From the NCBI GenBank assembly GCA_017410585.1, contig JAFQQM010000001.1, positions 7,343 to 71,342 of the forward strand: a stretch of DNA of 64,000 nucleotides, in the 5' to 3' direction. Made by a program: the position numbers and the translations under genes. The notes below the pieces were generated by a model. That model made no database searches and was not told the origin of the DNA. It saw only the letters and a program-made list of their open reading frames with translations. Shown here in pieces: positions 7,463-40,197 of this stretch. Position 1 is the first letter of the stretch, and every line of letters starts with the position of its first letter. This DNA comes from Clostridia bacterium. Its GTDB lineage: Bacteria > Bacillota > Clostridia > Oscillospirales > Acutalibacteraceae.

Positions 7463-7474
7463 AGTTTGAATGCC

Positions 7475-7651: not shown

Positions 7652-7708
7652 TCTGTATTCCCTCCCTCCGCTACTGCAGGGGTAATTTAGCACATAATGC
7701 TACTCTGT

Positions 7709-7737: not shown

Positions 7738-7762
7738 GAGGTAATTTTGCAAAAATGCAAAA

Positions 7763-10183: not shown

Positions 10184-10219
10184 GGGAAAATATCTCTCCT
10201 TTAATGAATTGCAAAATGA

Positions 10220-10576: not shown

Positions 10577-10588
10577 ATCGGTTCCTCC

Positions 10589-13110: not shown

Positions 13111-13113
13111 CGC

Positions 13114-13410: not shown

Positions 13411-13985
13411 AGTGATTTCTCCAATTCTTCCTGTAGTTTTTGCTTGAATAGCCGCAGGGCCTTGCCGCGATGACTGATGGCGTCTTTTTCGCCGTCATCC
13501 AGTTCGGCAAAGGTGCGTCCGTCTTCGATCTCAAAGATCGGGTCATACCCAAACCCGCCGTCTCCGCGGCAGGCGGTACCGATATAGCCCTCGCAGATCC
13601 CTTCGGCGGTGATCACCCGCCCGTCGGGAAATACGCAACAGACCGCCGACACAAAACGGGCGGTCCGTTGAGGACGGGGGAGACCGGACAATTTTTGCAG
13701 GACGGTCAACTTCCGCTGTCCGACCGGTGCATAACGGGCGGTGCGCACCCCCGGTTCGCCGCCGAGTGCGTCAATACACAGCCCCGAATCATCCGCCACG
13801 GCGGGCTTGCCCGTCTCACGGCAGGCGGCCGCGGCCTTGATATACGCGTTTTCCGCAAAGGTCGCGCCGTTTTCTTCCGGCTCGCTGAGTCCTTCCACGG
13901 TCACGGCTTCAATACCCATCGGGGCGAGGATACGCCGCAACTCGGCCAGTTTGCCTTGATTATGCGTGGCAATGATATATTGCAT
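13404..13985 (-). CDS. rdgB: XTP/dITP diphosphatase (RdgB/HAM1 family)
   Basis: IATHNQGKLAE...ADDSGLCIDALGGEPGVRTARY...FGYDPIF. Confidence 0.92.
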   Translation of the reverse strand: MQYIIATHNQGKLAELRRILAPMGIEAVTVEGLSEPEENGATFAENAYIKAAAACRETGKPAVADDSGLCIDALGGEPGVRTARYAPVGQRKLTVLQKLSGLPRPQRTARFVSAVCCVFPDGRVITAEGICEGYIGTACRGDGGFGYDPIFEIEDGRTFAELDDGEKDAISHRGKALRLFKQKLQEELEKSLC

Positions 13986-13994
13986 AGTATACCC

Positions 13995-14903
13995 TCATTC
14001 CGCAAACAGACCGGCGGTAAATTCCTCCGGATCAAACGGTTGCAGATCGTCGACCCCTTCGCCGACACCCACAAACTTGACCGGCACTTTCAGATCCTCT
14101 TGGATCGCCAGTACCACGCCGCCGCGGGCGGTGCCGTCCAGTTTGGTCAGCACGATGCCGGAGATATCCGCCACCTGCTTGAACTCCCGCGCCTGATTGA
14201 CCGCATTTTGTCCGGTGGTGGCATCCAGCACCAACAGCGTTTCCTTGTCGGCATCCGGCAATTCCCGATCGATGATGCGGTGCATCTTCGCCAGTTCGTC
14301 CATCAGATTCTTTTTGTTGTGCAGACGGCCGGCGGTATCGCAGATGACCACGTCCGCACCGCGCGCCTTCGCCGCCGAGATGGTGTCAAACACCACCGCC
14401 GTCGGATCGGCTCCGGGGCCGTGCTTGATGATATCGCAACCGGCGCGTTCCGCCCAGATGGCAAGTTGGTCGATGGCCGCCGCACGGAAGGTATCCGCCG
14501 CACCGAGCAACACCGTCTTGCCCTCCGCCTTCAGACGGGCGGCGAGTTTGCCGATGCTGGTGGTCTTGCCGACGCCGTTGACGCCGATGACCAGTACCAC
14601 CGACGGCTTGGTGGTGAGTTTCAGTTCATTCTCACCGCTAAGCATTTCGGCAACCGTTTGCTGCAACAGTTCCCGCACCTCGGCGGCATCCTTGATATGT
14701 TCCTCTTTGGCGCGGCGGCGCAACTCGGCGCAGATCCGTCCCGAGGTATTGATACCGACGTCGCCGGCAATGAGGATCTCCTCCAATTCGTCGAACAACT
14801 CATCGTCCACTTTGCCAAAGGCGTTGAGCATCGAATTGATCGAGTTCATCAGCGAACCGCGTGTTTTCCGCAGGCCTTCGCCGATCTTGCTGAAAAATCC
14901 CAT
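13995..14903 (-). CDS. ftsY: Signal recognition particle receptor FtsY (NG domain only)
   Basis: VIGVNGVGKTTSIGKLA, DTAGRLH and TKLDGTARGG motifs. Confidence 0.95.
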   Translation of the reverse strand: MGFFSKIGEGLRKTRGSLMNSINSMLNAFGKVDDELFDELEEILIAGDVGINTSGRICAELRRRAKEEHIKDAAEVRELLQQTVAEMLSGENELKLTTKPSVVLVIGVNGVGKTTSIGKLAARLKAEGKTVLLGAADTFRAAAIDQLAIWAERAGCDIIKHGPGADPTAVVFDTISAAKARGADVVICDTAGRLHNKKNLMDELAKMHRIIDRELPDADKETLLVLDATTGQNAVNQAREFKQVADISGIVLTKLDGTARGGVVLAIQEDLKVPVKFVGVGEGVDDLQPFDPEEFTAGLFAE

Positions 14904-14912
14904 AGGTACTCC

Positions 14913-17900
14913 TTACTCGTTATCCTGGTTGAGTTTCAGACCGAGCCGCGCTTCCACTTCGCTGGCACGCAGTTCCAGCAGGGTGGTCACGCCCTTCTCC
15001 TGCATCGTGACACCGTACAGCACGTCGGCTTCTTCCATCGTGCCGCGACGGTGGGTGATGACGATAAACTGCGACTCGTCGGTCATACGGCGCAGATACT
15101 GTGCATAGCGGTCGACGTTGACGTCGTCCAACGCCGCTTCGATCTCGTCAAGTACGCAGAACGGCGACGGGGTGACCCGCAGAATAGCAAACAGCAACGC
15201 AATGGCGGTCAACGCCTTTTCGCCGCCCGATAGCGCATCGAGGTTCAAAATGACCTTGCCCGGCGGTTGCACGAACATATCGATGCCGGAGGACAGCACG
15301 TCGTCCGGATCTTGCAGTTTCAGTTCCGCCTTACCGCCGTCAAACAGTTCGGCAAAGATCTTGCCGAAATACCCGTTGATCTCATTAAAGCGCTCGATAA
15401 ATACGTCTCGCATCTGTCCGGTCAGATCGCCGATGAGGTCGAGCAATTCCTTGCGGGAGACCTCGACGTCGGTCACCTGCGTATACAGGAAATCGTAACG
15501 CTCTTTCACTTCTTTATACTCGTCGATCGCACCGACGTTGACGTGACCCAGACCGCGGATCTTGTTTTTCAGTTCCTGCAGACGGCGGGTCGCTTCGGTA
15601 ATATTTTCCAGCGGCGGCGCGATCGCTTCCGCTTCGGCGCGGGTGAGTTCGTATTCCTCGTACAGTTTGCGGATGATCTCGTCCGTCTCCAACTGCGCGG
15701 CGGTGGTCTTTTCTTCGATACGCGCCACCTCGCCGCCCAGACGTTCCTTCTCGTCGGAGGCTTCACGCTGTTGCTGACGCAACGCGGTCACGCCCGCTTC
15801 GCCTTCGGTGCGCTTGAGGATGAGCGCCTCGGCGGTGGCGGTCACGTCTGCCGCCCGCTGACGTCCGTCTGCCGCCTGCTGACGCAACTCGGCAATATTC
15901 TGTTCGATCTCGGCGTTTTGCTCCTGCACCGCCGCGATCTGTTGTTCCAGCGACTCGCAGAATCCGACCGCATCGTGCTGACGCTGTTCCAGAGACTGAA
16001 TGCTCATTTCCTGCGCTTCGATCTCTTTGCGGGCGGTCACCGCCGCCAACTTGAGTTCGGAAACGCGGTTGCCCAATTCTTCACGGGCACCGGCCAGTTC
16101 CTGCCGTCCGCCGGACAATTCCGCCAGTTCCTGCTCGATAGCGGCTTGTTTGGCCGCCACGTCCGCCGCCGACTGCACCGCCGCGGCGATCAGTTGTTTC
16201 TGTTCGGCTTCGCGGGTGTGCAAGGTGTCGATCTCGGTGCGGCAATCGGTCACCGCCGTGCGGCTGTTTTCCGCCGTTTCGGTCAGGCGACGCTGTTCCG
16301 CTTCCAAACGGATGAGGTCTTCCTGCGCGGTGGTCAATTCGCCTTGCGCACCGACCAAGGCGGCGGTGGCGGCGGATGCCTCCTGCTGTACGCTGTTTAA
16401 GGATGCCTTGGCATCTTCCAACTTGGCGACCGATTTGTTGTAATCCGCCTGCAACTTTTCGATCTCGGAGCGACGGGACAACAGACCCGCGCCCTTGACG
16501 TGCGAACCGCCGGTCAGCGAACCGCCGGCGTTGACCACCTGACCGTCCAGCGTGACGATGCGGAATTTATAATGGTAACGCTTGGCCAGCGCGGTGGCGT
16601 CGTCCAGCGTTTCTGCCACGACGATACGGCCGAGCAGGCTGACGAGGATCTCGCGGTAGCGCTCGTCGCAGGTGACCAGATCGGAGGCGATACCGACCAC
16701 GCCGAAAGCGTCTTCCACGCCCTTTTCGTCCAACGTGCGACCCTTGATGGTTTCGACGGGGAGGAAGGTGGCACGGCCGGCCTTGTTATTTTTCAGATAA
16801 GCAATGGCTTTCTTGGCGTCGTCTTCGCGGTCGCAGACGATGTTTTGCGCGTTGGCGCCCAGCGCCGTCTCGATGGCAAGCGCCACCTTACTCGGCACGT
16901 CGATGAGGCGGGTGATGGGGCCGCGAATGCCGCGAAGCGCGCCCGCCTCAGCCTGCTTGATGACCAATTTGACGCTGCCGGAGAAGCCTTCCATACTGTT
17001 TTCCAGATCTTCCAGCAACTTGATACGGCGACGTTTATCCTCGGCGTCCAGCGTCAACTGATCCACCTCGGCGCGCACCGTTTCCAACCGCTTGTTGCGG
17101 GAGTCGGCACGCATCTGATAGCCGCCGACGGTATTTTGCAGGGATTGCACCTGCTCTTTGCAGTTGTCCACCGCTTCCAGACTGTCAGCCAGTTCCTGCT
17201 CGGCGGCTTCGGCGGCGGCCTGACGCAGTTCCACCGCGGCGGTCAACTGGGACAACCGCAGTTCGATCTCGGAAAGAGAGGTCTCTCCGGCCGATTGCTG
17301 TACGCGGATATCCGCCATCTGTAACGCCAGCGCGGCGGCGTTGCGATTGGCTTGTTCCAGTTTGTTGCCCGCTTCATCGCTGGAACGGGAGAGCGCGTCC
17401 ATCTCTTCCGAAAGGGCGAGTTGTTGCTTCTCGGATTCGGCGATGGCGGCTTCCTTCTCCGCAATGACCGCACGGCAGGCGGCGATCTCTTGGTCGATTT
17501 GCGCTCCGCCGGTACGGCTCTGTTCGATCTCACTCTGCATACGGGCGATGTTTTCGTTGTTATGCAGAATATCGTTTTCGCGGACGGCAATATCACCGTC
17601 GCGGTGGGTGGCTTCTTCCTCAAAGAGTTGAGCCTGACGGCGCAGTTCGTCGATCTGTGCCGCCAGCAAAGCGGATTGCTCGCCGACCGCATCGATCTGA
17701 CGGTCGATGTCGTCGATCTTGTCCGCCGCCGCGTCGTATTGCACGCGCGCCAATTCCAACTTACCGCTCAGCGAACGGAGCGTATCCCGCGCTTTTTCGA
17801 TCTGATGCAACCACAGCGCGATCTCCAAGCCTTTGCGCTCGCCGGCGTATTCGAGGAATTTTTCCGCTTTCTTGGATTCGTGCTCCAACGGCCCCACACG

Positions 17901-20329: not shown

Positions 20330-20797
20330 ATGATACAAAACGGAAAGGATGTGAGGCATACGGAAAGCGTCAAAGGCATTGTCGAGAGTACCATCTCGCT
20401 GGATAAGTCCTCTTGCTACTTTATGAAGAGCGGCAAATGTGCGCTGAGTATCATCGGTGATTTTTCGTTTTCCCGCCTGCGGTTAGATCCTTCCGACGTG
20501 CTGTATTGCCCCAATCTGTTCCGCCAGATGACCGGCAAAGACAAATCCAAACCGGTCAATATCATCCCGTGCGAATGCGGACACGCCGAAGTGGTCAGCG
20601 GTCAGCAACGCGCTTGTATTGCCAGCCAAAAGCGTCTGCGTGTGGCGGTGGCGGCGGCGGGGGAAGAAAGTTACCCGCTGTGTAGTGTTTGCGGTAGCCA
20701 AATGACCTTGGATGAGACGGCGGCGCAGGCCGGCGGTCTGCGTGTGGTCACCGTCCACGCGGTCATCGAACCGCCCAAGAAACCCCGAAAGAAATAA
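20330..20797 (+). CDS. Hypothetical Cys-rich (putative zinc-binding) protein
   Basis: Only the 3' part of track ORF 19268..20797 is non-antisense. It has CPNL, CECGH and CSVCGS motifs and a basic tail, and is followed by a terminator. The start is uncertain (20294 or 20330). Confidence 0.45.
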   Translation: MIQNGKDVRHTESVKGIVESTISLDKSSCYFMKSGKCALSIIGDFSFSRLRLDPSDVLYCPNLFRQMTGKDKSKPVNIIPCECGHAEVVSGQQRACIASQKRLRVAVAAAGEESYPLCSVCGSQMTLDETAAQAGGLRVVTVHAVIEPPKKPRKK

Positions 20798-20798: not shown

Positions 20799-20837
20799 AA
20801 AAAAGGACCTTTGGAAACCCCAAAGATCCTTTTTTTT
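20799..20837. terminator. Bidirectional intrinsic terminator shared by convergent genes
   Basis: A-run, AGGACCTTTGG-AAACC-CCAAAGATCCT, then a T8 run. Confidence 0.85.
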
Positions 20838-20994
20838 AATCGACAAACCCGTCGTATCGCATAAATCGCTCGAAATCACGAAGCGCCTGCTTGTCCTGCT
20901 CGGTCAGCACCGGCTCGGGTGGCAGCGGACGGCGGCGTTTGCCAAGCAACCACCCCAGCCAAAAGGCGGGTATGGCGAGAAGCATTCCCCACAT
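20836..20994 (-). CDS. Small membrane protein (52 aa), last gene of the phage-like cluster; not in the supplied ORF track
   Basis: Own translation: MWGMLLAIPAFWLGWLLGKRRRPLPPEPVLTEQDKQALRDFERFMRYDGFVD. AAAGGAGG lies 8 nt upstream of the ATG. It has one N-terminal TM helix. Confidence 0.6.
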   Translation of the reverse strand: MWGMLLAIPAFWLGWLLGKRRRPLPPEPVLTEQDKQALRDFERFMRYDGFVD

Positions 20995-21008
20995 GACCCA
21001 CGCCTCCT

Positions 21009-21734
21009 TTAGCGACCGAGTACGCGCTTGCGTAGCGCATACACCAGTTCGACGTAATGCGGATAGAAGCGGGTGCCGGCGTAGTAGTCGTTGTTGCCCA
21101 GCAGACGGATGTACTGCGATAAGTCGCTGGCAGAATAGCCGGAACTGCCGCTGCCGGAACTGCCGCTGCCGGAACCGCCGCCGTTTGCTTTGGCGGCGGA
21201 GACCGCCGCGTTATACTGTGCCTTCGCGCTGTCGTTGGCTTGCGCCATCAACGCCTCCAGCGAGTTTTGCATGTCGGTCTGTGCCTGCGTTTCCGCCTTG
21301 GCTTTTTGTTCGCCGAGCCATTGTTCGTTGCCCGCCAACACGTTGAACAGTTCTTCCCGCAACCCGTTGATCGCCGCCTGCTGTTGCAAGGCGGTGTTCG
21401 CGTCCGCTTTGGAGCGGGTGGTGGCAATAGCGGTCTGTTGCGAGCGGTTTAACCCGCTGTCGCCTAACCCCAGATTGGCCATTTGTTCCGCCACCGTCTT
21501 GCGGGAGACCGCCTCACGGATGGCATTGCGGTCGTATAACCCGCGGTACTGTTGCTCGGTCGCCTGCATCTGCGAATCAAACGCCTTCTGATGTCGGCTG
21601 TTCATACCGGCCGCCGTCTGTTCCAGATTGGCAAACACCTTTTTGAGTTGGGCTTTACGCTTCTTTTCGTATTCTTCCTGCTGCGCCAACGCATCCTGTT
21701 GCGCTTGCGCCAAATAGCCGGAATAGGAACTCAT
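21009..21734 (-). CDS. Phage-like structural or internal protein, Q/A-rich coiled coil with a GS linker (function unknown)
   Basis: The start is taken at MSSYSG (AAAGGAGA RBS). It is Gln/Ala-rich and helical, with a GGGSGSGSSGSGSSG linker and a basic C-terminal domain. Confidence 0.6.
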   Translation of the reverse strand: MSSYSGYLAQAQQDALAQQEEYEKKRKAQLKKVFANLEQTAAGMNSRHQKAFDSQMQATEQQYRGLYDRNAIREAVSRKTVAEQMANLGLGDSGLNRSQQTAIATTRSKADANTALQQQAAINGLREELFNVLAGNEQWLGEQKAKAETQAQTDMQNSLEALMAQANDSAKAQYNAAVSAAKANGGGSGSGSSGSGSSGYSASDLSQYIRLLGNNDYYAGTRFYPHYVELVYALRKRVLGR

Positions 21735-21748
21735 AACGGATTCTCCTT

Positions 21749-23746
21749 TCATTGGATAGAAAATGTGATGCCGCGCCAAGCGACCGATCGGTCTGTTTCT
21801 GCGCGCAGCGAGAAACGGCGTACCCGCCGCAGGGCGAGAAACGCCCGCGCAAAGCCGTTTTCATCGGTGGTGACCGTCCGTTTGTCACCGTCGCCGGCCG
21901 GTCGGTCGCCGGAAGGCAACAGGGTGAGAGGCGCATACGGCGAACCGCTTTCCAGCGTCACCGTCCGCACCGTCTTACGGCGGTCTTCCCGTCCGGCGGT
22001 CAGATGAGGCAACTGCAACATCGAGTGGATGGGGGATTCGCCGTCGACCGTGTCGACCTCGCCGCCCAATATCCACAATTGCTTGTCGCCGATCAAAAGC
22101 GGTGTTTCGCCGTCGACGATCGCGGTTGCCTGTACACCGGACGGCAATTCCCAACGGTACCAAGCCAAACGGCTTTGTAACGTGCTGTCGGCGGTGCCGG
22201 TACCGACTGCCGCCAGACCGGCGGTGCGGTAATCAAACAAAAAGATCTGCGTTCCCGCCATCAACAGATAATGCCCATAGCAATCGGCGGCACAGCGAAT
22301 AGCCCCTTGGCTCTGTTGCAACAGCGGCCACACCGCCTGCCCGATCTCCCGCACGTTGCGCTCGCTGTAGATGTTGCCGCTGACCAGCATATACACCCGC
22401 CCGTCACTGTTGGTCCATACCAGACGGTTGTCACACAGCGCCAGCGTGTCGGGAAGGTCACAGCCGACGTTCCACGCGATCAGTGCCAACGGGAATTGTG
22501 CCACCGCGGTTTCGATGTCGGTCACCGTTCCGTTCTCCAGTGCGGCGGTCAACGCCTCGCTGTCGGTCACGCCGACCGTATACGAACTGTACCACACCTC
22601 GGTCTCCTTGAAGATGACCAGCATATCCGCCTGTTTCTTGAGTGCCGTAATGGCTTGTCCTGCCTGCCCAACGCGGGTGTCGTTGTTTTCCGGCAGATAG
22701 GCGATGTTGTCTATCGCGCTGTAACAGAGGCGGCTCGGTTCCTGATGACTGCCCGCCAGAAAACAGCGGGTGCCGCCGCCCAAACCGGCGGTACTGCCGC
22801 CAAACCACGTTGCCACCGTCATCGAACGGATCAACTCCCGATCAGCCGGCTGATCGGTCAGCGGTCGATAGGTGAATATCAATGAACTCCATTTTTCGGT
22901 GTCCGGTACCGCTACTTTGGTGCTGTTGTCCTGAAACCATACCACGCCGGTCTGCGGCGACCAGCACACGACGTACCCGCTGATGGGATCGGTAGAGACC
23001 AATCCGTCGCCGGTATCGCTGACCAGCGGGATATTAAAGTCCGTTGCCCCACGCAACGTCACCACCAGACGGGCGGGACGGTGCCGCGTAAAGGACGGTA
23101 AGGTATGATAAGGCAGTCCGTCGGTTGGGAAAAATTCCATTTTAAACGCTTCGGTCAGCCGGTTGTACGGTTCGTACACGGTACCGGCGGCCACCGTCAT
23201 CGCTTTCGCCATTTCGTAGGTCTCTGCGCCGCGTGCCGCGATAAGCACCGTCGGTACGTAGATATCCAATTGGGTCAGCGTGCCGTCGTAGTCGAGCGAA
23301 TAGGGGACACCGTCGATGTACATCATCGCCAACCCATCCCCGCCGCTGATCGGCAACAACTGGGTCGGCAACGTTTGCCAATCGGCGGTGGTGTTTTGCC
23401 GTACGATGGAAAATCGTCCGGACGCTTCGCAGAAGACCGCCCCCAGCGCATAACCGCTGATCAGGGTGTGCAGTAAGAGCAGGAGTTGACCGCGCTGGCC
23501 GTTGAATACCAGCGGCTCAGGCAACAGCACCTGCCGCACCACCGTGCCGAAATTGGGAAACTGGTCGTCGGTCGGCCGTACGCCGGGGCGGGTGCGTAAA
23601 GCCCCGTCCTTCCACCATAGATTGCAGGCATCCCGCAGGCGGTTGGCATCGATGGCGGCGTCATCGCTGACGCGGTCGATCCCACCGCTTAAAGCGGAAA
23701 GGCGCAGACGGCTCTCCGCCGTTCGCCCGTAAGAGGGATATTGCAT
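21749..23746 (-). CDS. Phage-like tail/nozzle candidate (665 aa), directly downstream of portal
   Basis: Position after portal, large size, beta-rich repeats (VWTNSDGRVYMLVSG, HYLLMAGTQIFLFDY) and a strong RBS. No family is assigned from memory. Confidence 0.6.
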   Translation of the reverse strand: MQYPSYGRTAESRLRLSALSGGIDRVSDDAAIDANRLRDACNLWWKDGALRTRPGVRPTDDQFPNFGTVVRQVLLPEPLVFNGQRGQLLLLLHTLISGYALGAVFCEASGRFSIVRQNTTADWQTLPTQLLPISGGDGLAMMYIDGVPYSLDYDGTLTQLDIYVPTVLIAARGAETYEMAKAMTVAAGTVYEPYNRLTEAFKMEFFPTDGLPYHTLPSFTRHRPARLVVTLRGATDFNIPLVSDTGDGLVSTDPISGYVVCWSPQTGVVWFQDNSTKVAVPDTEKWSSLIFTYRPLTDQPADRELIRSMTVATWFGGSTAGLGGGTRCFLAGSHQEPSRLCYSAIDNIAYLPENNDTRVGQAGQAITALKKQADMLVIFKETEVWYSSYTVGVTDSEALTAALENGTVTDIETAVAQFPLALIAWNVGCDLPDTLALCDNRLVWTNSDGRVYMLVSGNIYSERNVREIGQAVWPLLQQSQGAIRCAADCYGHYLLMAGTQIFLFDYRTAGLAAVGTGTADSTLQSRLAWYRWELPSGVQATAIVDGETPLLIGDKQLWILGGEVDTVDGESPIHSMLQLPHLTAGREDRRKTVRTVTLESGSPYAPLTLLPSGDRPAGDGDKRTVTTDENGFARAFLALRRVRRFSLRAETDRSVAWRGITFSIQ

Positions 23747-23759
23747 ACGTGCCCTCCTT

Positions 23760-25430
23760 TCAGATGACCGGCAGTTCGTCAGCCGGCGGGGTCTCCTTCA
23801 ACTCCCGCAACAGACCGGACAGATTCGGCACCGTGCCCTTCGGCAAGCGCGACAGATACTGCAACGGGGTGATGACCTGACGCTCAAACAGGTTATCCAG
23901 CGTTTGCACCGATTGCGCTTCACTCCACAACGTCGAAGCCCCGACGTCCGCTTTTACCGAGATAATGACGTCGGCAAACCGTCTGCCGTCAAACGGCAGA
24001 TACCAGATACCGCTGTCGTCCTCGATCTTGAGACTGCGTGGCCCGTACTGGGTCACCCAGAACTCCGCCCAGATGCGGGCAACCTCCTCCACAAACGCAT
24101 AAAAATGATTTTGCATCGTCTGCATCGGCATAGTTGCCGCTTCACGCAAGGCGATGATCGCGGAGGTGTTGTTGGGGTTCATATTGCCGAGTGCCGCGTC
24201 GTTGGCACCGGATTGGCTCATCGTGTTGCTGATGAGTGAGGAGATATTGGCATCGAACTGCGGCGAGAAGTTGGGCGGTTGCACGTAACGGATGGCGGAA
24301 TTGACGTCCTCTGCCGAACCGTATACGCGGATGACCTGACCGGGATCGTTGCTCACCTTCTGTTGCACCACGTCGCCGTTGACCACCATCATCGGGATAC
24401 CCATCATCATCACCGCCCATACGCTGGCGGTGACCATACGGTTGATGGCGATCTGGTTGGGGATCAAATGGGTGATCTCGCTTTCGCCGTAGATACAGCG
24501 GCGGCGCGGTTCCCACTCGAATTTGGCGATCGGGTACAGGCGTACCCCCAGTTCCCACGCCGGCCGTACCACCACTTTGCCGCAGACGCGGACCGCCTTG
24601 ATGACCGACGTTTGACCGGTCTTGTCCCACTCGCGGTAGAACTTGGTGATGACCGTCGCCTTGCCGTCGGCTTGTTCGCCCTCGCCGCCGGCGGTGAAAT
24701 CGTCCGGCTTGAGTTCTTCGGCCGCCGCACTGCGCCCCAGCCGCCTCATTTCCAGACGGATATCGTCGATGCGGCGACGCTGTGCGACCAAAATGTAGGG
24801 TTGCTCTTGCAGGTTGTCGTTGGCGGGATCGCCGAAACAGACGTTTTCGATGTCCAGTATCTCGCAACGGATGTCGCCGCGGATGGGAACGGTGTGCGCC
24901 TCATCGGCGTACAGACCGGTTTGCAGACGGTCGTCCCAATAGGTATACAGTAAGCCGGTGCCGGCAATGTACGCCTGTCTTAGCACCTTGCTTTTCAGTT
25001 CATCAAAACGTAATCGCTCGGCGGTGACGCGGAAATAATCGGATAACGCCGTCATCACCAGATTGATCTCCTCGTCGGCGGTGATCGGTTCGGTCGGCAT
25101 CAGTCCGCCTGCTAAACCGGCCCGCAGTTGCCCGATACGCTCCTGCGTATCCAACGTGTTCGGCACGCCGTCGGCGCTGTAACTGACCGCCACCGGATTG
25201 GAACCGATGACCGACATTTTATAGTCGCCGATGCGTTTGATGATGTTTTCTCTCACCAGCGGTCGCTCGGCGGAGGCGTTGATGCCGTGCCATTGATCGC
25301 CGATGTAAAATCGTTCGTTGACTTTGCATTGCTCAAAGAGACCCCGCCGACCGAGTCCCGCTTTGTAGGAACATCCGGCGGCGTATTCGTCCGCAATGCG
25401 AATGGGGGAATCCCATTTCAGAGTTGACAA
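23760..25430 (-). CDS. Phage portal protein (TTG start)
   Basis: 556 aa, immediately downstream of TerL. It has an NERFYIGDQW motif as in portal/connector proteins. AAGGAGG lies 8 nt before the TTG. Confidence 0.75.
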   Translation of the reverse strand: MSTLKWDSPIRIADEYAAGCSYKAGLGRRGLFEQCKVNERFYIGDQWHGINASAERPLVRENIIKRIGDYKMSVIGSNPVAVSYSADGVPNTLDTQERIGQLRAGLAGGLMPTEPITADEEINLVMTALSDYFRVTAERLRFDELKSKVLRQAYIAGTGLLYTYWDDRLQTGLYADEAHTVPIRGDIRCEILDIENVCFGDPANDNLQEQPYILVAQRRRIDDIRLEMRRLGRSAAAEELKPDDFTAGGEGEQADGKATVITKFYREWDKTGQTSVIKAVRVCGKVVVRPAWELGVRLYPIAKFEWEPRRRCIYGESEITHLIPNQIAINRMVTASVWAVMMMGIPMMVVNGDVVQQKVSNDPGQVIRVYGSAEDVNSAIRYVQPPNFSPQFDANISSLISNTMSQSGANDAALGNMNPNNTSAIIALREAATMPMQTMQNHFYAFVEEVARIWAEFWVTQYGPRSLKIEDDSGIWYLPFDGRRFADVIISVKADVGASTLWSEAQSVQTLDNLFERQVITPLQYLSRLPKGTVPNLSGLLRELKETPPADELPVI

Positions 25431-25454
25431 GAGTTTGTCCTCCTTTTTTGCTTG

Positions 25455-26738
25455 TTATCCCCAACCTCCGCGGAAATCGGCGGCGTTCCATTCGGAGCGT
25501 CTTTGCGGGATTTGGGCGTCGGGATGGGGTGTTTGGATGTCGGTCATCGCATACCGCAACGCATCCATCAGATGATTGTCACGGTCGACCGGTCGGTTGA
25601 TGCCGCTACCGTCGGCGTTTTTGTCCCAGACGTACGCCGACAACTCCCGCACCGTGTTGACACAGCGGGGATGCACCGTGATGTGATAGGCTTGTAACTG
25701 CTGAATGCCGTTGCGGATGCTGTCCGGTCCTTTGATCGCCGCCCGCAACCGCGAAAGACCCAGCCTTCGCAGTTCCTCATTGGATTTCGGTTCGGCGGCA
25801 TCGGCACGGATCCGCTCCTTGGCGTATCCTTTCCGAATGATCGTCTCGGCGATGTCTCCGTTGAGCATACGGGTCTGGTAATGCTCGTCAAAGATATACA
25901 ACTGCTTGGCGACCGGATCGGCCGCCGCCGCGATAAACGCCGTCGGATCGTTGGAATACCCGTAGTCGAGGCCGAAGACACGGGTATAACTCGCCGGCAA
26001 CGCCGCGATGTCAAACGGTCGTATCTCCCAATTTTCGAAGATCAGCCCGTCGGCGATGCCCCAATCGCCCAATCCCGCCACGCGGTAGAGTTGCGGTTGT
26101 GCGTCTTTCATCCGCTCGTATCGCCGTCGGTCGACTTCGTCCAGAAATTCGTTGCAGAGGTAGTTGGTGGTAAACACCGCCGTATCGCTGTCGGGGTGGT
26201 CGAAAAACCGCGCCTTGAGCCAATGTTTTTCCGACCACGGATTGAAGGTCACCGTCGTCTGCTTAAACAGCGGCGGAGGCAACGCCCCACGGGGTACCGA
26301 CAAGTCCAACTTATCAAAATCGTGTTCGCTGACGATCTCGGAGGCTTCCTCTACCCAGACCCAGCAGAGATACCCTTCCGGCACCGTGGCGGAGGCAAGT
26401 TTGTCCACATCGTCAAATCCTCGAAACAAGATGCGCTGTCCGGTGGGTTTAAACTCCAAAGACAGCGGATGTTCGGTCGCTTTCCACAGTGCCGACACCC
26501 GCAACCGTCGGATCGCCCACAGCAACTGCGCAAAGGTGGAATCGTGGTGGGTGTTGGCTACCGCTCGGACCACCAACAGATTGGCTTCGGGATATTTCAT
26601 CAGATGGTAGATATACCACAGTGCGGTCGTCGCGGATTTTTTAGAGGCTTTGCCGCCTTTTAAAACACGGTATCGCTTGCGGCAATGCCAGAATTCTCTG
26701 TACCCGCCGCCGACGATATCCGGTAAATGTACCGTCAT
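25455..26738 (-). CDS. Phage terminase large subunit (PBSX/Terminase_3-like)
   Basis: YRVLKGGKASKKS (P-loop), WVWVEEASE (Walker B) and FGLDYGYSNDPTAF (RNase H-like nuclease). Confidence 0.9.
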   Translation of the reverse strand: MTVHLPDIVGGGYREFWHCRKRYRVLKGGKASKKSATTALWYIYHLMKYPEANLLVVRAVANTHHDSTFAQLLWAIRRLRVSALWKATEHPLSLEFKPTGQRILFRGFDDVDKLASATVPEGYLCWVWVEEASEIVSEHDFDKLDLSVPRGALPPPLFKQTTVTFNPWSEKHWLKARFFDHPDSDTAVFTTNYLCNEFLDEVDRRRYERMKDAQPQLYRVAGLGDWGIADGLIFENWEIRPFDIAALPASYTRVFGLDYGYSNDPTAFIAAAADPVAKQLYIFDEHYQTRMLNGDIAETIIRKGYAKERIRADAAEPKSNEELRRLGLSRLRAAIKGPDSIRNGIQQLQAYHITVHPRCVNTVRELSAYVWDKNADGSGINRPVDRDNHLMDALRYAMTDIQTPHPDAQIPQRRSEWNAADFRGGWG

Positions 26739-26751
26739 AAGGCACCTCGCG

Positions 26752-27192
26752 TTACTTGTCGCCCTTCTTTTCCAGCGTGATCTTCAGCCGCTCTGCCAAC
26801 TTTTGTAAAAAGGTCGGCAACGGCACTCCCAACTCGCTGACGTTTTCCAAAATACTGATCAGTTCGTTGACGATCAGCCAGAAGGTCACCAGAAGCCCGA
26901 CCGCAAAGCGGACGGTCATATCGACCCCCAGCGTCTGGGCGGCTTCGGCGATGACGTAATCGGTCACCAACCCCACCGCCACCACCGCCAGATTGGCGAT
27001 CTTTTTTAAAATTCCGCTGATACCCACGCGGCTGCACAGCGTTTTGGTCACCACCGCTTTGGCGATGCCGGTACCGTAATCCACCAGCATGACCAACAAC
27101 AGCACCGCCACAGGGACGGCCAGTTGCGAAAAGCAGGCGGCGACTGCCGCCGCCGCCGAAGCGAGCACAGCGCGGAAAGTCGTTGCTTGCAT
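26752..27192 (-). CDS. Phage holin (LL-H / Phage_holin_4_1-like)
   Basis: 146 aa with multiple TM helices. It has the DYGTGIAKA...SRVGISGILKKI motif and a charged C-terminus. Confidence 0.85.
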   Translation of the reverse strand: MQATTFRAVLASAAAAVAACFSQLAVPVAVLLLVMLVDYGTGIAKAVVTKTLCSRVGISGILKKIANLAVVAVGLVTDYVIAEAAQTLGVDMTVRFAVGLLVTFWLIVNELISILENVSELGVPLPTFLQKLAERLKITLEKKGDK

Positions 27193-27216
27193 CGTGATTC
27201 ACCTCTCAGGGGTAGT

Positions 27217-27239
27217 CCCCCGCCCACGTTGGGCGGGGG
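27217..27239 (-). other. GC-rich stem-loop between the capsid and holin genes
   Basis: CCCCCGCCCA-ACG-TGGGCGGGGG, a perfect 10-bp stem with no U-tract. Confidence 0.7.
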
Positions 27240-27247
27240 ACGGGGGA

Positions 27248-28162
27248 TTATTCAGCCAACGCGGCGACGATACCGCCGCCCAGACTGTTTTTGACAAACA
27301 GATCGTAGTACACGCGGTAATCGATCTTGTACGCATCCGCCACTTGGTTCTGATCCGGCGTGAAGGTGCGGGTCTTTTCGGTCTTTTTGACCAGCGAAGC
27401 CGCACGCTTGGGCATCAGCAACAGGCTGATCCCCCACGCATCGGAAGCCGGCTGGAAGCCGCCTTCGGCCTGACCGTCGGTGGTGCCGTCACGGAAGGTA
27501 TACTTGGTCTTCATACGGCTCTTTTCCACCGGAATGAGCGCCACACCGTTGAGGGTGGTGACTTCGGTGGTGATCTCACCCTTCTGCATCTGGTTGACGG
27601 TCATCATACGGGCGATCTCTTCCGAACGCTGCAACGCGGCGATGACCGCATAATCCACAAACGCCACCAGTTCCTCGTCGTAGCCGACGGCGTCACGCGC
27701 CATTTCCACCGCTTCGCTGAACATCTTGTACGGCGCGGTCAGATCGGTATCGAGCACCTGACCGTTCTCCGAGGCGTAGGCCGCCAGTTTGGAGAGGTTG
27801 TAGGCGTCCATTTCGGGAACGACCTTGGTGCGGACGAATTCCGCCAGCACCTCGCCGGCCAGATTGGCAATGCCGGTCTCATCTTCGTCCTCTCGGTCGA
27901 GTTGGAAGGAACGGCCGCGGTCCATCGCCAGCGTGTACGGCTGGTTGGAGACCTGAATGCTGCCGCCCACAAAGCCGGTGTCGCGGTCGTAGTTGCCCAG
28001 ACCGGACATATCCACTTCGGGGATCAGCACCGTCTTGGCGCCGACAAACTTGGCGCGCAGTGCGTTATCGGCAAGGAAACCGGTCGCGGCCTTCTGTACA
28101 ACGGCTTTGTCCAGTTCCTGCGTCATCGCGGTATTAAATTCGATCGTGTTGATAGTAGACAT
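27248..28162 (-). CDS. Phage major capsid protein
   Basis: 304 aa, preceded by a scaffold-like gene. The N-terminus MSTINTIEFNTAMTQELDKAVVQKAATGF resembles capsid proteins of Firmicutes phages. Strong RBS. Confidence 0.8.
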   Translation of the reverse strand: MSTINTIEFNTAMTQELDKAVVQKAATGFLADNALRAKFVGAKTVLIPEVDMSGLGNYDRDTGFVGGSIQVSNQPYTLAMDRGRSFQLDREDEDETGIANLAGEVLAEFVRTKVVPEMDAYNLSKLAAYASENGQVLDTDLTAPYKMFSEAVEMARDAVGYDEELVAFVDYAVIAALQRSEEIARMMTVNQMQKGEITTEVTTLNGVALIPVEKSRMKTKYTFRDGTTDGQAEGGFQPASDAWGISLLLMPKRAASLVKKTEKTRTFTPDQNQVADAYKIDYRVYYDLFVKNSLGGGIVAALAE

Positions 28163-28186
28163 CGTTGTTTCTCCTTTTCTTTTCGT

Positions 28187-28909
28187 TTAGATTCGACTGC
28201 GGAATCCCTGCAGGAAGGATCGGCTGGTCGCCGTCACCCCGTCTTCCGGTATCGAGCGGAGCGATCCGACCGCCACCGCCGAAGCGGCGGCCGCCGCCTG
28301 CTGTGCCTGTCCGACCCGACGTTGCTGTGCATAGGCGTGCGCCAGCCAGCATTCGGTCAACGACCGTCCGCTTTCGGCCGCCTGCCGCCACAATGATTCG
28401 GGTAGCGAATCGACGTCGCCCACTTCCGGATAGGCCGCTTTGAGCGCCAAAAACTCCTCGGTCAGACGTTCGTTCATCAGCGCCTGCCCGTCCGCTTCCG
28501 CCGCTTCGGTGATCGGCGCGTGGCGTGCCGCCAGCAATTCCCTTGCCGCGGCTTCGTTGCCGCCCACTTCCTTTAGCAATTCCTCGTATTGTACTTCTTC
28601 CAGCGCTTCTGCCATCTTTTCGACGGCTTGCTCCGGTCGTGAACAACCCAACGCCCGACCGATGGTCTTCAGCCGTTCAAATTGAGGGGAAAACTGTTCA
28701 AACCGTAAGCCTTTTTGCAACAGGCCGGTGACGCGCTGGGTGTCGTCGGCCTGCACGCGGACCACCTCGCCGTTGTATACGGGGAGATAGACACCGCTTT
28801 CCGCTTCTGCGGGTCGGTTGTCGGCATCGGTCGGGGTATTGACCTCCGCCGCGGGGGACGTGCCTGTATCTTCAGCGGTTGGGATACCCGCTTGGATTTT
28901 TTCTTCCAT
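28187..28909 (-). CDS. Scaffolding-protein candidate
   Basis: 240 aa, acidic, A/E/L-rich and helical, immediately upstream of the capsid gene. Confidence 0.5.
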   Translation of the reverse strand: MEEKIQAGIPTAEDTGTSPAAEVNTPTDADNRPAEAESGVYLPVYNGEVVRVQADDTQRVTGLLQKGLRFEQFSPQFERLKTIGRALGCSRPEQAVEKMAEALEEVQYEELLKEVGGNEAAARELLAARHAPITEAAEADGQALMNERLTEEFLALKAAYPEVGDVDSLPESLWRQAAESGRSLTECWLAHAYAQQRRVGQAQQAAAAASAVAVGSLRSIPEDGVTATSRSFLQGFRSRI

Positions 28910-28926
28910 CGTCGTTTCCTTTCTTT

Positions 28927-29295
28927 TTAAGCGATATTCCGCGGCAACGCATCAATGCGCTGTTCGGTCGTAGTCAGCAACCCGCGTTTGCGGTTGTAAA
29001 TGAGCGCAAACGCCGCTTCGGTGTTGGTATCGCCCTCGGCGATCGCCAATAGCATCGCCACACCGTACGGCATCACCTCATCCAGTAACCGCCGCGAAAG
29101 CGGCAACGGCATCGACATATCGGTGATCGTCGACGGCGCTGTGCCGCTGGCGTAGGACAACTCGCTGTAGATCTGCCGTACCGCCGCCAACCCATGCCGA
29201 TTGGCGGAGCGTGCCGCTTCCGAGTCGATGTCGCCGTTTTGGTCGGTGTAACCCATCAGAGTCAACGCTCGCTGTAAGATCTGATTGCCGTTCAT
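28927..29295 (-). CDS. Small phage protein, head-tail adaptor/connector candidate
   Basis: 122 aa and helical. The call rests on size and context only. Confidence 0.4.
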   Translation of the reverse strand: MNGNQILQRALTLMGYTDQNGDIDSEAARSANRHGLAAVRQIYSELSYASGTAPSTITDMSMPLPLSRRLLDEVMPYGVAMLLAIAEGDTNTEAAFALIYNRKRGLLTTTEQRIDALPRNIA

Positions 29296-29296
29296 T

Positions 29297-30052
29297 TCAC
29301 TTCACCGCCTTCTCTGCGACCCAGCCGGTCACGTAGCCGGCCTTGCCGACCCATTCGGGGCGCACCGTAATACGCACCCGACCGCTCACTACCGCCTTAT
29401 CCCAACGGTAATAGGTGCCGGTGGCGGTGCCTGCCGCCGTTTTGGCGCTGGCAGACACGTATAACGGCTCGCGCTTAAGTGTAAAGCCTTTTGACTTGCC
29501 ATCATCGGCCGGCACCGGCTCTTTCTCGGTGCGGTAGGGGACGTCGTACAACTCGCAAATGGCGCGAACAGTATCTTCCGCCATCTTCGCCATATTTCTG
29601 TGGAACCACTGGCAATCCGCCGCATTGTCGTGAAAAATCAGTTCGTCGTAAAGGCAAACGGCTTTCGTCGCACGGATCTCGTACAGTTCGCGGTTGACCA
29701 CCACCTTGTGGGTGGTCGGCACCGTTTTGCGGTGCTTGTGCAGGATGTTGGCGGCACTTTTGTTGGTGCTGTCATCCCAGCACATGGTCATCGAATACCG
29801 TCCGCCGCCGGCATTGGTGTGTGCCACGTAATGCAGATCGGCGTTCCACGCATTCGACTCCGCCACGCGGTCGATCATCGCGTCGGTGCCGGTTGCCGGA
29901 CCGCCTCGTTTGACCGAAAATCCCAATGCCTTCAATCGTTTTTCCACGATATCCATATACTGTCCGCAGTGGGTGTTCTCACTGCATTTTCCTTCACACT
30001 TGGTGGGGTTGTCACTGCCGTGCAGTGCCGGAGACAGATAGATCTTTGCCAT
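29297..30052 (-). CDS. N-acetylmuramoyl-L-alanine amidase endolysin with an SH3-like C-terminal domain
   Basis: IYLSPALHGSDN...DLHYVAHTNAGGG (Amidase_3-type zinc site). The C-terminus YYRWDKAVVSGRVRIT...GWV is SH3b-like. Confidence 0.8.
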   Translation of the reverse strand: MAKIYLSPALHGSDNPTKCEGKCSENTHCGQYMDIVEKRLKALGFSVKRGGPATGTDAMIDRVAESNAWNADLHYVAHTNAGGGRYSMTMCWDDSTNKSAANILHKHRKTVPTTHKVVVNRELYEIRATKAVCLYDELIFHDNAADCQWFHRNMAKMAEDTVRAICELYDVPYRTEKEPVPADDGKSKGFTLKREPLYVSASAKTAAGTATGTYYRWDKAVVSGRVRITVRPEWVGKAGYVTGWVAEKAVK

Positions 30053-30055
30053 CGT

Positions 30056-31147
30056 TTATCCCTCCTTTACAAGCAGATGCAAAGTGGCGTTGGTGCCGGT
30101 ATCGTTGACCACCGCGCCGCCGCCGGTCAGATCGGCGATCAGCGATCCGCATGCGCCGCTATTAAATTGGTATTGCACGATCGCGCGATGGGTTCCGCTG
30201 TAGTTGGTGCAATGCAACTGAATGTAGGACAGATCGCTCAGCAAAATGCCGCCGCCCACGGACAGCGAAAGACGCTCGCCCATACCGGTGATGAAAGCGT
30301 TTTTCGGGATGCTCATCGACTTGTAGGCGGTCAGTGTGTAGGAGGTAAATTGCGGCACGGCCGCATTTTCCACGTACGGTGCGTTGATGATGGACCAGAC
30401 GTTGCCGTTTTTGAGGATCTGCGCGCAGGCTTTTTTGCCGGTGGAGGTGGTAATGGCAAACTGTGCGTACCAACTGTGATCGCACAGGGTCATAAAACCG
30501 AGCAGATTGCCGTATACCAGATAGACCATCCGACCGCTTTTGTACGCCTCGCTGATGACGTCGTAAGTGGTCTGACCGTACACTGCAAACAGCGGCATCC
30601 GGTTTTCCACTTCGGTCACCAGCCCATCGGCGATCTCCTCGGCGACCGCCGCCTTGTCCACCGCCTGCGCGGCGGCCAGTTCTGCCGTATCGGCGCATCG
30701 TTCCGCTACCTCGGCATCCTTCGCCACCGCCATCAGCATTTCGGATAAACTGTGCTTGATGACCGGCAGGTTCTCCGCTTCGCGGTCGTCAAAGTACACC
30801 GTGCCGGTCATCACCGTCGCGGCGGACAGTTCGTTGCCCGCTTGGTCAAATTCGGTGGCGATCAGTCGCACACAGCAACGTCCGCCTGCCTGTGTGAAGG
30901 GACGGGTCAGCCTTTGGGAGACCAACCCGACGTTGTCGGGTTTCTGCAGATCGCCGACCACCAGCGACCCACAGCCGTTGACCATTTCAATACGAAAATA
31001 CACGCTGTCGCCGACCGTTGCGTCCGGCGGCAGGAAACCGACGAGGCAACGCCCGTTATCGCCCTGCACTCCCGCATACTGCGGCGCAGTGGGTGTGCAT
31101 ACGCCGTTTTTCATCTGAAAGATCACGTTCAGATTGGGTTGAATCAT
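30056..31147 (-). CDS. Phage-like tail fibre / receptor-binding candidate (363 aa)
   Basis: An N-terminal beta domain, a central Ala/Glu-rich helical segment (AVAKDAEVAERCADTAELAAAQAVDKAAVAEE) and a C-terminal beta domain. No family is recognised. Confidence 0.45.
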   Translation of the reverse strand: MIQPNLNVIFQMKNGVCTPTAPQYAGVQGDNGRCLVGFLPPDATVGDSVYFRIEMVNGCGSLVVGDLQKPDNVGLVSQRLTRPFTQAGGRCCVRLIATEFDQAGNELSAATVMTGTVYFDDREAENLPVIKHSLSEMLMAVAKDAEVAERCADTAELAAAQAVDKAAVAEEIADGLVTEVENRMPLFAVYGQTTYDVISEAYKSGRMVYLVYGNLLGFMTLCDHSWYAQFAITTSTGKKACAQILKNGNVWSIINAPYVENAAVPQFTSYTLTAYKSMSIPKNAFITGMGERLSLSVGGGILLSDLSYIQLHCTNYSGTHRAIVQYQFNSGACGSLIADLTGGGAVVNDTGTNATLHLLVKEG

Positions 31148-31165
31148 AAAGTCACTCCTTTGTCG

Positions 31166-31540
31166 TTACTCGGACAGTTCCGCTTCACCGGTAAACGCGA
31201 TGTTGAGATCGGCGCGTACGTCGGCTTTGTCGGTGTATCCGAAATTGTTTTTGCCGAGAAATGCCGCACCGGTATGACTGCCGGTCTTCATCAATTCTTC
31301 GGCCAGTGCCGCCCCGATGCGGTAATACTGCTCGCACAGCAGACGGCGGATGCGTGTTTCGGCGGGGGAGAGGACGGTCGGCTCGGCGTGGACGTACGCT
31401 AAAAATGCCTCGCGAGATAGACCCAGACCCGCCGCCAATCGCTCCACCGTCAGCGGAACACCTCGCTTTTCGGCGATCGCTTCGGCCTGTTCGATCGCCT
31501 CCTTGACCCGCTTGGGACTGCGGAAAATGTTGTTTGCCAT
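31166..31540 (-). CDS. Phage terminase small subunit
   Basis: The start is at the internal Met (MANNIFRSPK...) with an AAAGGAGG RBS. It has an HTH-like LTVERLAAGLGLSREAF segment and a C-terminal AAFLGKNNFGYTDK motif typical of TerS. Confidence 0.75.
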   Translation of the reverse strand: MANNIFRSPKRVKEAIEQAEAIAEKRGVPLTVERLAAGLGLSREAFLAYVHAEPTVLSPAETRIRRLLCEQYYRIGAALAEELMKTGSHTGAAFLGKNNFGYTDKADVRADLNIAFTGEAELSE

Positions 31541-31661
31541 CAATGCTTGCCTCCTTTCGCTTTGAGCATACCACGTTACTGCCGTGCAAAACGGATAGCC
31601 ACCGCCTTGCCGGCAACTGTAGCCCGCCTGCACTCCGGCTGTAAAAGATTTGCTCATACCC

Positions 31662-33663: not shown

Positions 33664-33812
33664 AATCTTCTTATCAAGAGTGACGGAGGGAACAGGCCCT
33701 ACGATGTCCGGCAACCTGTCGCGTAAGCGAAAAGGTGCCAAATCCTGCGGGTAAAACCGAAAGATGAGTGCTGAAAAAGCGACGCTGTCGGGTTTCCCGA
33801 CAGCGTCTTTTT
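33664..33812 (+). ncRNA. SAM-I (S-box) riboswitch with an intrinsic terminator
   Basis: CTTATCAAGAGTGACGGAGGGAACAGGCCCTACGATGTCCGGCAACC...AAGGTGCCAAATCCTGC...GAAAGATGAG matches the S-box consensus. The terminator GCGACGCTGTCGGG-TTTC-CCGACAGCGTC-TTTTT follows, and metK is downstream. Confidence 0.9.
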
Positions 33813-40107: not shown

Positions 40108-40197
40108 AAACTTGAAACCTCGTTTACCGTATGATACCGGAAGGCAGAAATGCTTGCCGGTCAGCGATACCCACCCGTAACGCAAGGAGGACCCGTT

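Follow-up and report, generated by a model that had tools for sequence, protein, structure and literature searches.

Gene content and boundaries of the block

The window analyzed here, a 64,000-nt stretch of contig JAFQQM010000001.1 from a Clostridia bacterium of the Acutalibacteraceae, carries on its minus strand a block of 12 co-directional open reading frames (ORFs), at 20836-31540 (10.7 kb), with intergenic gaps of 1 to 55 nt. The head, packaging, short-tail and lysis genes of the block form a set derived from tailed phages, as seen from family, PHROG, NCBIfam and structure matches. An original prediction, made from the DNA sequence, had proposed a gene transfer agent (GTA)-like or domesticated phage particle as a candidate for this block; the analysis supports that proposal, and none of the refutation tests that were run overturned it. 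Read 5' to 3', the gene order is TerS, fibre, amidase, an adaptor-sized protein, a scaffold-like protein, capsid, holin, TerL, portal, nozzle, a coiled-coil protein and a small membrane protein. The genes, named g1 to g12 in that order, and the elements at the two ends of the block are as follows (lengths in amino acids, aa).

31584..31643, minus strand: phased T[GA]CA[GC] repeats at -103, -92, -81 and -48 from the TerS ATG, putative transcription-factor sites
31565..31573, minus strand: extended -10 element TGGTATGCT, probable operon promoter, with a predicted leader of about 18 nt
31166..31540, minus strand: g1, small terminase TerS, 124 aa; GP3_package (P22-gp3 type) E 4.7e-5, below the Pfam cut-off
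30056..31147, minus strand: g2, fibre or receptor-binding protein, 363 aa; conserved N-terminal anchor, coiled coil and variable C-terminal beta domain (alignment A3)
29297..30052, minus strand: g3, endolysin, N-acetylmuramoyl-L-alanine amidase, 251 aa; Amidase_3 E 7e-8, phrog_435 E 2.6e-15
28927..29295, minus strand: g4, probable head-to-tail adaptor, 122 aa; no family match, assigned by position
28187..28909, minus strand: g5, probable scaffolding protein, 240 aa; no family match, assigned by position
27248..28162, minus strand: g6, major capsid protein, 304 aa; phrog_422 major head protein E 4.5e-79
26752..27192, minus strand: g7, holin, 146 aa; Pfam Phage_holin_4_1 E 1.7e-30
25455..26738, minus strand: g8, large terminase TerL, 427 aa; Terminase_3 (PF04466) and Terminase_3C, PBSX family TIGR01547 E 9e-48
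23760..25430, minus strand: g9, portal, 556 aa, TTG start; P22_portal / SU10_portal, phrog_156 E 6e-29
21749..23746, minus strand: g10, podovirus tail nozzle (tail tubular protein B), 665 aa; identified from an AlphaFold2 model and Foldseek
21009..21734, minus strand: g11, coiled-coil protein with a Gly-Ser repeat, 241 aa; no family match, candidate tail-tip or plug protein
20836..20994, minus strand: g12, 52 aa, with an N-terminal hydrophobic segment; last gene in clades A and B (see below)
20799..20835, no single strand: bidirectional intrinsic terminator closing the operon; 17-bp stem, T runs on both strands, scoring as a terminator on both

Most of this layout had been foreseen. The 12 ORFs and their spacing were as described, the terminator scores as such on both strands, and the host-like base composition noted by eye was borne out by GC content, GC content at third codon positions and codon usage, all of which resemble those of the flanking housekeeping genes (relative synonymous codon usage, r = 0.92). 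A ribosome-binding site had been claimed for each gene; AGGAG-like sites do precede all 12, with weaker ones at g4, g7 and g8. Also as predicted, Pfam annotation gave no integrase, replication or repressor genes in the block or in approximately 10 kb on each side of it, Pfam and PHROGs gave no sheath, tube, tape-measure or regulator genes in the block, a tRNA search of the whole window found none, and a search for att-like direct repeats bracketing the block returned only chance-level families. The further ORFs scanned in the window (leuS, two BspA-type leucine-rich-repeat proteins, two giant CBM-containing proteins, an ABC sugar transporter and a LacI regulator) were likewise without integrase, replication or repressor genes. 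No homologue of an ejection protein was found in the block; the fibre, nozzle and adaptor are present.

Both flanks, followed for about 10 kb, hold only housekeeping genes: a lysC-like kinase, thrB, hom, metK, a cyclase and galK on one side, and plsX, rnc, smc, ftsY, Ham1, YhbY, nadD and LytR on the other. The block had been placed between the plsX operon and a sugar-kinase gene, and these neighbors are right, the kinase being galactokinase-like, except that a 148-aa gene intervenes. That ORF, at 20351-20797 (+) between the block and plsX, is Cys-rich (CxC...CxxC), has no Pfam family, and converges on the shared terminator. It occurs in all lineages of clade A (67-97% identity) and is absent from clade B.

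Assignment of gene functions

Family matches stand behind the roles originally given to the amidase, capsid, holin, TerL and portal, and more weakly to TerS, while the scaffold and adaptor labels follow from size and order only. Four of eight TerS orthologues match GP3_package, and TerS is the first gene of the block in every case. Residues 28-52 of TerS may form a segment resembling a helix-turn-helix (HTH); in comparisons of a profile against PDB chains, the HTH matches were weak and non-significant. The capsid protein is 30-40% identical to capsid proteins of Firmicutes phages. It has no NCBIfam match at E <= 0.01, and is therefore not of the N4-gp56 family; NCBIfam also provides no name for the portal, TerS or scaffold. 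Sequence searches against PDB chains, with a profile for the nozzle and with the portal and capsid proteins, returned nothing significant. Neither Pfam nor PHROGs matched g2, g4 or g5, and Pfam had no match for g11 or g12. From its size and its position directly upstream of the capsid gene in all relatives, g5 is probably the scaffold. By similar reasoning g4 is probably the adaptor, being of appropriate size and having a homologue between the portal and nozzle genes in phage relatives.

The 665-aa, 241-aa and 52-aa products (g10 to g12) had been described as transmembrane proteins, but only the smallest looks membrane-spanning, and the largest is the nozzle. This identity comes from the fold, as sequence searches alone failed to reveal it: at the sequence level the only matches were virion proteins from phages of Bacillus megaterium (Page and Pony, for example). 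The AlphaFold model of g10, built from 30 homologues, is of high quality (pLDDT 88, pTM 0.85), and its Foldseek matches in PDB, at E values from 5e-18 to 1e-12, are the nozzles of E1004, T7 (gp12), P22 (gp10), Sf6, SU10, Pa223 and PhiM1. Matches among the viral models of BFVD are called "tail tubular protein B" and "P22 Gp10." The homologue of g11 follows the nozzle gene in all relatives, and by this position g11 is a candidate for a tail-tip or plug protein. Its Gly-Ser linker is encoded by a 15-nt tandem repeat (21138-21182), whose copy number differs among strains to give proteins of 241 or 246 aa (L096-L100, L109).

In the fibre protein, g2, an N-terminal domain of about 140 aa is conserved, while the coiled coil and C-terminal beta domain are variable. 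The AlphaFold2 model is of moderate quality (pLDDT 69.5), and in it the N-terminal domain matches BppU-type upper-baseplate proteins of TP901-1, 80alpha and NF5 (E 3e-5 to 7e-4). As modeled, the architecture is that of a trimeric fibre or receptor-binding protein. Lineages with TerL proteins 86-87% identical have fibres only 29-48% identical (L002 1-700; P0146-P0148; L250 6073-7266); the strain-level assembly L002 is broken within the fibre gene. Taken with the nozzle, which is recognized by predicted structure, these assignments support a gene content covering head, short tail, lysis and packaging.

Relatives and their gene orders

Homologues of the nozzle fell into 91 clusters. A profile scan, run on a single genome for each species, found 97 loci; 80 of these were retained, and almost all come from Acutalibacteraceae, Oscillospiraceae or "Clostridia" metagenome-assembled genomes (MAGs) from animal and human guts. 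Mapping the 12 block proteins and their flanking genes onto these loci separated four groups, clades A and B and groups C and D. A neighbor-joining tree of TerL, portal and major capsid protein (MCP) makes clades A and B monophyletic, with group D as sister. The capsid protein search shows a clear gap, with identities of at least 71% for clades A and B and at most 65% for all others, and it found no cultured carrier. Scanning metagenomes with a TerL profile built from clades A and B brought up no further loci of either clade, only group C and group D orders.

Clade A comprises the window species (in many strains), L094, L005, L085 and L007/L250, at least five species-level lineages. All share one set of 12 genes in one order, and in each the block lies immediately upstream of the 148-aa gene and plsX-rnc-smc-ftsY. 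The other flank is cyclase-galK, with asnB inserted in the L250/L007 lineage and asnB present at the edge of the L085 locus. In L250, which belongs to the same species as L007 (99.9% nucleotide identity), the arrangement is metK-(TIR gene)-cyclase-galK-asnB-block, so that the metK-cyclase-galK flank of the window is conserved as well. The TIR-domain gene (ThsB-like, L250 806-1621) lies between metK and the cyclase, beside the flank of the block.

Clade B (L008-L010, L076, L088, L252 and L254) consists of more distant Acutalibacteraceae MAGs in which the gene order of the block is kept. Its left flank is metK-cyclase, as in clade A, and its right flank has cytidylate-kinase-like and sigma-70 genes. 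Several features are peculiar to this clade: an extra 271-aa gene after the fibre (L252 6921-7736), and, in most of its capsid proteins, a C-terminal CarboxypepD_reg (Ig-like) extension to 383 aa, vs. 304 aa in the window (L252 10001-11152). In L254 (2500-3316) the scaffold gene appears as a pair of ORFs (43 and 211 aa), which may reflect a frameshift or a sequencing error.

Group C includes the large majority of the genome loci and all 58 relatives found in IMG/VR, on contigs that reach 33-39 kb. Its order is TerS-TerL-scaffold-MCP-portal-adaptor-nozzle-g11, followed by an internal protein of about 2,300 aa (with MuF_C or ART-PolyVal) and many small accessory genes. These are real phages or prophages (e.g. 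L090, L091 and L112-L157, uncultured podophages of gut Oscillospirales). Identity between the block and group C is 25-35% for the nozzle and 50-66% for TerL, MCP and portal. None of the 58 IMG/VR relatives has the gene order of the block; all have the phage order. The original prediction had raised the possibility that the same genes would turn up inside a larger phage. Homologues do exist on contigs of up to 33-39 kb, but they are distant and differently ordered, and the block is therefore not a recent deletion remnant. Human-gut contigs L195, L198 and L199 (79-141 kb), from an abundant group, have the order TerL-scaffold-MCP-portal-adaptor-nozzle with a galK homologue about 10 kb upstream.

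Group D (L066, L079, L092, L023 and L125) consists of other compact cassettes with the order TerS-TerL-portal-scaffold-MCP-adaptor-nozzle, modified to TerS-portal-TerL in L023 and portal-TerL in L125. The L066 cassette (4300-16300) lies between folP/Band_7 and trmD/ffh, and that of L092 (4100-13400) between gapdh and clpP/ftsK. L092 and L079 (3700-11400) have adjacent HTH and S24 repressor genes, with a Myb-like protein in L079 as well, and no integrase was seen. L066, L079 and L092 may be further domesticated or SOS-inducible elements.

Such compact islands invite the suggestion that the block is a phage satellite or mini-phage that depends on a helper for replication, integration or induction, in the manner of a capsid-forming phage-inducible chromosomal island (cf-PICI). 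The block is compact and encodes capsid and packaging genes, its sister compact elements keep an S24 repressor, and a similar 12.7-kb cluster in Butyricicoccaceae has been likened to capsid-forming satellites (10.64898/2026.07.08.737213). We nevertheless disfavor this explanation as very unlikely. The block lacks any integrase, alpA, primase or replication gene, has tail and lysis genes of its own (lacking in cf-PICIs), and has an order absent from IMG/VR. The locus is fixed, with no empty sites seen and with synonymous divergence (dS) across species about equal to that of the host flanks, as described next.

Selection and inheritance

Ratios of nonsynonymous to synonymous divergence (dN/dS) were calculated pairwise, using NG86, between the window species and the four other clade A lineages. 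Every block gene has a dN/dS of 0.02-0.3, the exception being the variable C-terminal part of the fibre compared to L007, at 0.6. TerL scores 0.05-0.07 and g12 scores 0.07-0.27; TerS, TerL, portal and capsid together range from 0.05 to 0.18. The most constrained proteins are TerL, portal and capsid. The fastest-evolving are the fibre, nozzle and g11, which would be the ones in contact with a target cell. No clade A lineage seen has lost or disrupted any of the 12 ORFs. The claim that the block is maintained rather than decaying thus stands. In clade B, dN/dS is 0.11-0.5.

Divergence keeps the pace of the host chromosome. Compared to L094, dS is 0.52-0.69 for block genes and 0.40-0.57 for flanking host genes; compared to L005 and L085, block and host flanks are both near or above 1. 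TerL, at 87-90% amino acid identity, matches smc, plsX and rnc (77-93%) in conservation. Within clade B, L252 and L254 show a dS of 0.32-0.86 for the block and 0.45 for the flanks. Occupation of the same locus in related species under purifying selection, proposed as a check on the original prediction, is confirmed by these values. Nor is the block's presence strain-specific: 24 contigs from independent samples carry an identical RNase III, all of those shown that reach upstream of plsX have the block, no empty site occurs among them, and no att repeats flank it. The block is inherited vertically with the host chromosome, with purifying selection on all 12 genes.

These data bear directly on the notion of an inert prophage remnant kept by chance. 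Most phage modules are indeed missing, as they would be from a remnant. Yet 12 of 12 ORFs remain intact throughout the clade A lineages seen, dN/dS is far below 1 at saturating dS, and order and locus are conserved across two deep clades. Unless the selection data are an artefact they refute this idea, and we give it almost no credence.

Promoter region

An extended -10 element (TGGTATGCT or TGGTATAAC) about 25 nt upstream of the TerS ATG is kept in clades A and B, and its TGGTAT is invariant in the six sequences of these clades that were aligned (alignment A2). Further upstream, the T[GA]CA[GC] repeats have identical positions and 11-bp phasing in three clade A species (the window species, L085 and L250), against a background rate for the motif of 0.34 per 100 nt per strand. 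The copy at -48 overlaps the -35 position. Clade B has an 11-bp pair of repeats at -58 and -47. Judging from the DNA sequence, the phased repeats suggest putative binding sites for an external (host) factor. LytTR-type sites were considered for these repeats and rejected, as the match was not consistent across species.

A probable domesticated particle cassette

Gene content and evolutionary pattern lead us to favor the view that the block is a domesticated, podovirus-derived cassette for a GTA-type (viriform) particle. Its observed footing is the set of genes present, the fold of the nozzle, an absence of mobility genes, a single fixed locus, divergence at the pace of the host, and purifying selection. 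With no integrase, replication or immunity genes, the element persists by vertical inheritance only. The expression of the block, the assembly of particles, the packaging of DNA (random or pac-started) and its delivery into recipients would proceed approximately as follows. A single operon would be read from the extended -10 promoter, probably under control of a host transcription factor acting at the 11-bp-phased repeats. Portal, scaffold and capsid protein would form a procapsid, whose head would be filled by TerS and the PBSX-family TerL, presumably by a headful route. The adaptor, nozzle, coiled-coil tail-tip protein and fast-evolving fibre would make a short tail, and holin and amidase would lyse the cell to release the particles. 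In a fraction of cells, particles would take up chromosomal DNA and then attach to related cells by way of the fibre.

Several points weigh against this reading. All hosts are uncultured MAGs, and no regulator gene was identified within the block. It has no counterpart of the giant internal or ejection protein that its phage relatives carry, which may impair DNA delivery. Capsid and scaffold lengths are unchanged from those of phage relatives on contigs up to 33-39 kb, and so there is no sign of a shrunken capsid unable to hold the 10.7-kb element itself. The possible, weakly matched HTH-like segment of TerS, in contrast to the TerS of FpGTA (the GTA-like element of Faecalibacterium prausnitzii, discussed below), hints at packaging directed by a pac site rather than random packaging.

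The last two points together make pac-initiated packaging in situ a live alternative to random packaging. The block would then be a fixed site for lateral transduction only: TerS would act at an internal pac site, headful packaging would proceed from the unexcised locus into the adjoining chromosome, and the flanking genes would be preferentially mobilized instead of random parts of the genome. The possible HTH-like segment and weak P22 gp3 family match of TerS suit such a scheme, as do the phage-like sizes of capsid and scaffold, a TerL from the family whose founding member, PBSX, packages host DNA in pieces of about 13 kb, and an element that without integrase never excises. However, the lack of a replication module would leave few DNA copies per cell, no pac site was identified, and clades A and B differ in one flank, so that no particular cargo is conserved. 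We consider this version unlikely.

The absence of the giant internal protein also leaves room for a PBSX-like role in which DNA is not productively delivered. The block would then be a killer particle or a device for programmed lysis, kept for killing competitors or for the release, by lysis, of DNA or cell contents, and any packaged DNA would be incidental. Such a role would fit a TerL of the PBSX family, a holin and amidase integral to the operon, the absence of the ejection-type giant protein, and a fibre that evolves fast, as expected of a targeting device. Against it, constraint on TerS, TerL, portal and capsid is among the strongest in the block (dN/dS 0.05-0.18), which suggests a need for filled heads, no killing mechanism is known for a short, non-contractile tail, and the precedent from a related family, FpGTA, carries host DNA (PMC12946183). 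A role of this kind seems to us improbable, to about the same degree as transduction confined to the flanking genes.

If the block is indeed a GTA-type cassette, a more specific proposal can be offered, tentatively. It may be the smallest self-contained GTA known, with head, packaging, short tail and lysis all in one 10.7-kb operon. It would stem from an independent domestication, radically reshuffled, of a podophage lineage with free members on contigs of up to 33-39 kb; its inheritance would predate the split between two deep lineages of Oscillospirales, and a host factor at the phased promoter repeats would switch it on. Were this true, the block together with L066, L079 and L092 would provide the missing loci behind GTA-like packaging in gut Clostridia beyond Faecalibacterium. 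A second, apparently independent and more compact podovirus-type cassette, fixed in Clostridia of ruminant and human guts, would mean that short-tailed phages have been domesticated repeatedly in the order. The block and its sister loci are concrete candidates that can be tested in existing virome data, and the 12-gene single operon offers a minimal model for the reduction of a phage to a host-owned DNA-packaging particle.

Other features of the window

Outside the block and its neighbors, a SAM (S-adenosylmethionine) riboswitch (RF00162, 79.5 bits) lies at 33668-33770 (+), upstream of metK. The two BspA-type leucine-rich-repeat proteins (444 and 432 aa) are encoded at 360-3065 (+), in a stretch with a GC content of 0.44-0.48, vs. 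about 0.57 elsewhere, which may be foreign DNA. Two giant ORFs at 40150-49683 and 53350-61092 (+), of 3,178 and 2,581 aa, contain CBM_4_9 domains, and one of them has a weak GH42 match. They flank the ABC sugar transporter, and the LacI regulator comes after them.

Comparison with known systems

PBSX of Bacillus subtilis is about 28 kb long, with a contractile tail and its own repressor and sigma-like regulators; it packages host DNA in pieces of about 13 kb, released by lysis. Like the block it is a defective phage-like element of Firmicutes, and the two share TerL family TIGR01547. The block differs in having a nozzle-type tail rather than a contractile one, and no repressor or sigma-like regulators. 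RcGTA has a long tail of the siphovirus type, encoded by a head-tail cluster of about 15 kb plus several dispersed loci, is controlled by the host regulators CtrA and GafA, and has a T=3 capsid that holds about 4 kb (PMC9662315). With RcGTA and other alphaproteobacterial GTAs the block shares its probable origin as a domesticated tailed-phage cluster, vertical inheritance, purifying selection and the inability to replicate itself, along with lysis genes, RcGTA being released by lysis; the block, however, is short-tailed and self-contained. The podophages of group C have homologous TerL, scaffold, capsid, portal, adaptor, nozzle and g11. Compared to them the block is reshuffled, approximately one third the size, and without the giant internal virion protein and accessory genes.

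Satellites of the cf-PICI type resemble the block as compact islands of approximately 10-13 kb having their own capsid, portal and terminase. As summarized in a recent preprint, they are mobile between strains and encode an integrase, regulators and replication genes but neither tail nor lysis genes (Alqurainy et al. 2023, in 10.64898/2026.07.08.737213). The block shows the reverse in each respect, with tail and lysis genes but no integrase, regulators or replication genes, and with a fixed locus. The same July 2026 preprint proposes that a 12.7-kb cluster from Butyricicoccaceae QXXE01 may be a GTA or a satellite, and finds DNA of the QXXE01 genome uniformly present in fractions of virus-like particles (bioRxiv 10.64898/2026.07.08.737213). 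By its description, that cluster is similar to the block as a single compact set of TerS, TerL, capsid, holin and endolysin genes from Oscillospirales. It differs in including a transcriptional activator.

The closest parallel is FpGTA, and its publication makes outdated the original statement that no described system in Clostridia matches the block. FpGTA is a podovirus-like, GTA-like element of Faecalibacterium prausnitzii whose 40-nm particles contain random pieces of host DNA of about 8.5-9 kb (Borodovich et al., Nat Commun 2026, PMC12946183). Two separate operons specify it, one of 10.5 kb for head and packaging and one of 5.5 kb for tail and lysis (PMC12946183). Host DNA, the same study showed, is commonly packaged in a GTA-like manner by gut Ruminococcaceae and Oscillospiraceae, and Faecalibacterium is so far the one case in which the responsible genes have been linked to particles; GTA-like packaging was observed as well for Gemmiger, Ruminococcus callidus, Onthomonas and Christensenellaceae, where the loci were not found (PMC12946183). 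The hosts of the block and of FpGTA belong together within gut Clostridia, in a broad group made up of Ruminococcaceae, Oscillospiraceae and their relatives. Both have a podovirus-like set of head and short-tail genes, with TerS, TerL, portal, scaffold and capsid in an operon of about 10 kb, and both have holin and endolysin but no replication or integration genes. FpGTA is near-ubiquitous in its host genus.

The differences are nonetheless considerable. FpGTA is divided between two loci separated by about 125 kb (head and packaging at I; baseplate, fibre, receptor-binding protein and lysis at II), while the block is a single 12-gene operon. By annotation, the FpGTA capsid is N4-gp56 and its TerL belongs to a "Terminase-like family" (Supplementary Data 2), vs. 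a capsid with no NCBIfam match and a PBSX-family TerL here. No obvious DNA-binding domain is reported for the TerS of FpGTA, whereas that of the block has a possible HTH-like segment, and FpGTA is supported by experiment whereas the block is read from its genes. Among the group D cassettes, L092 was tried as a homologue of FpGTA-I and rejected, as it comes from a "Clostridia bacterium" MAG and has a PBSX-type TerL and no Prp-like match. Because the capsid and terminase annotations differ, and because it is a single operon, the block is not filed as a member of FpGTA. It would appear to work like FpGTA but to represent a separate domestication, set apart by these annotation names. The kind of system, a podovirus-like GTA in gut Clostridia, is already known, and the block is a compact, single-operon and anciently inherited lineage.

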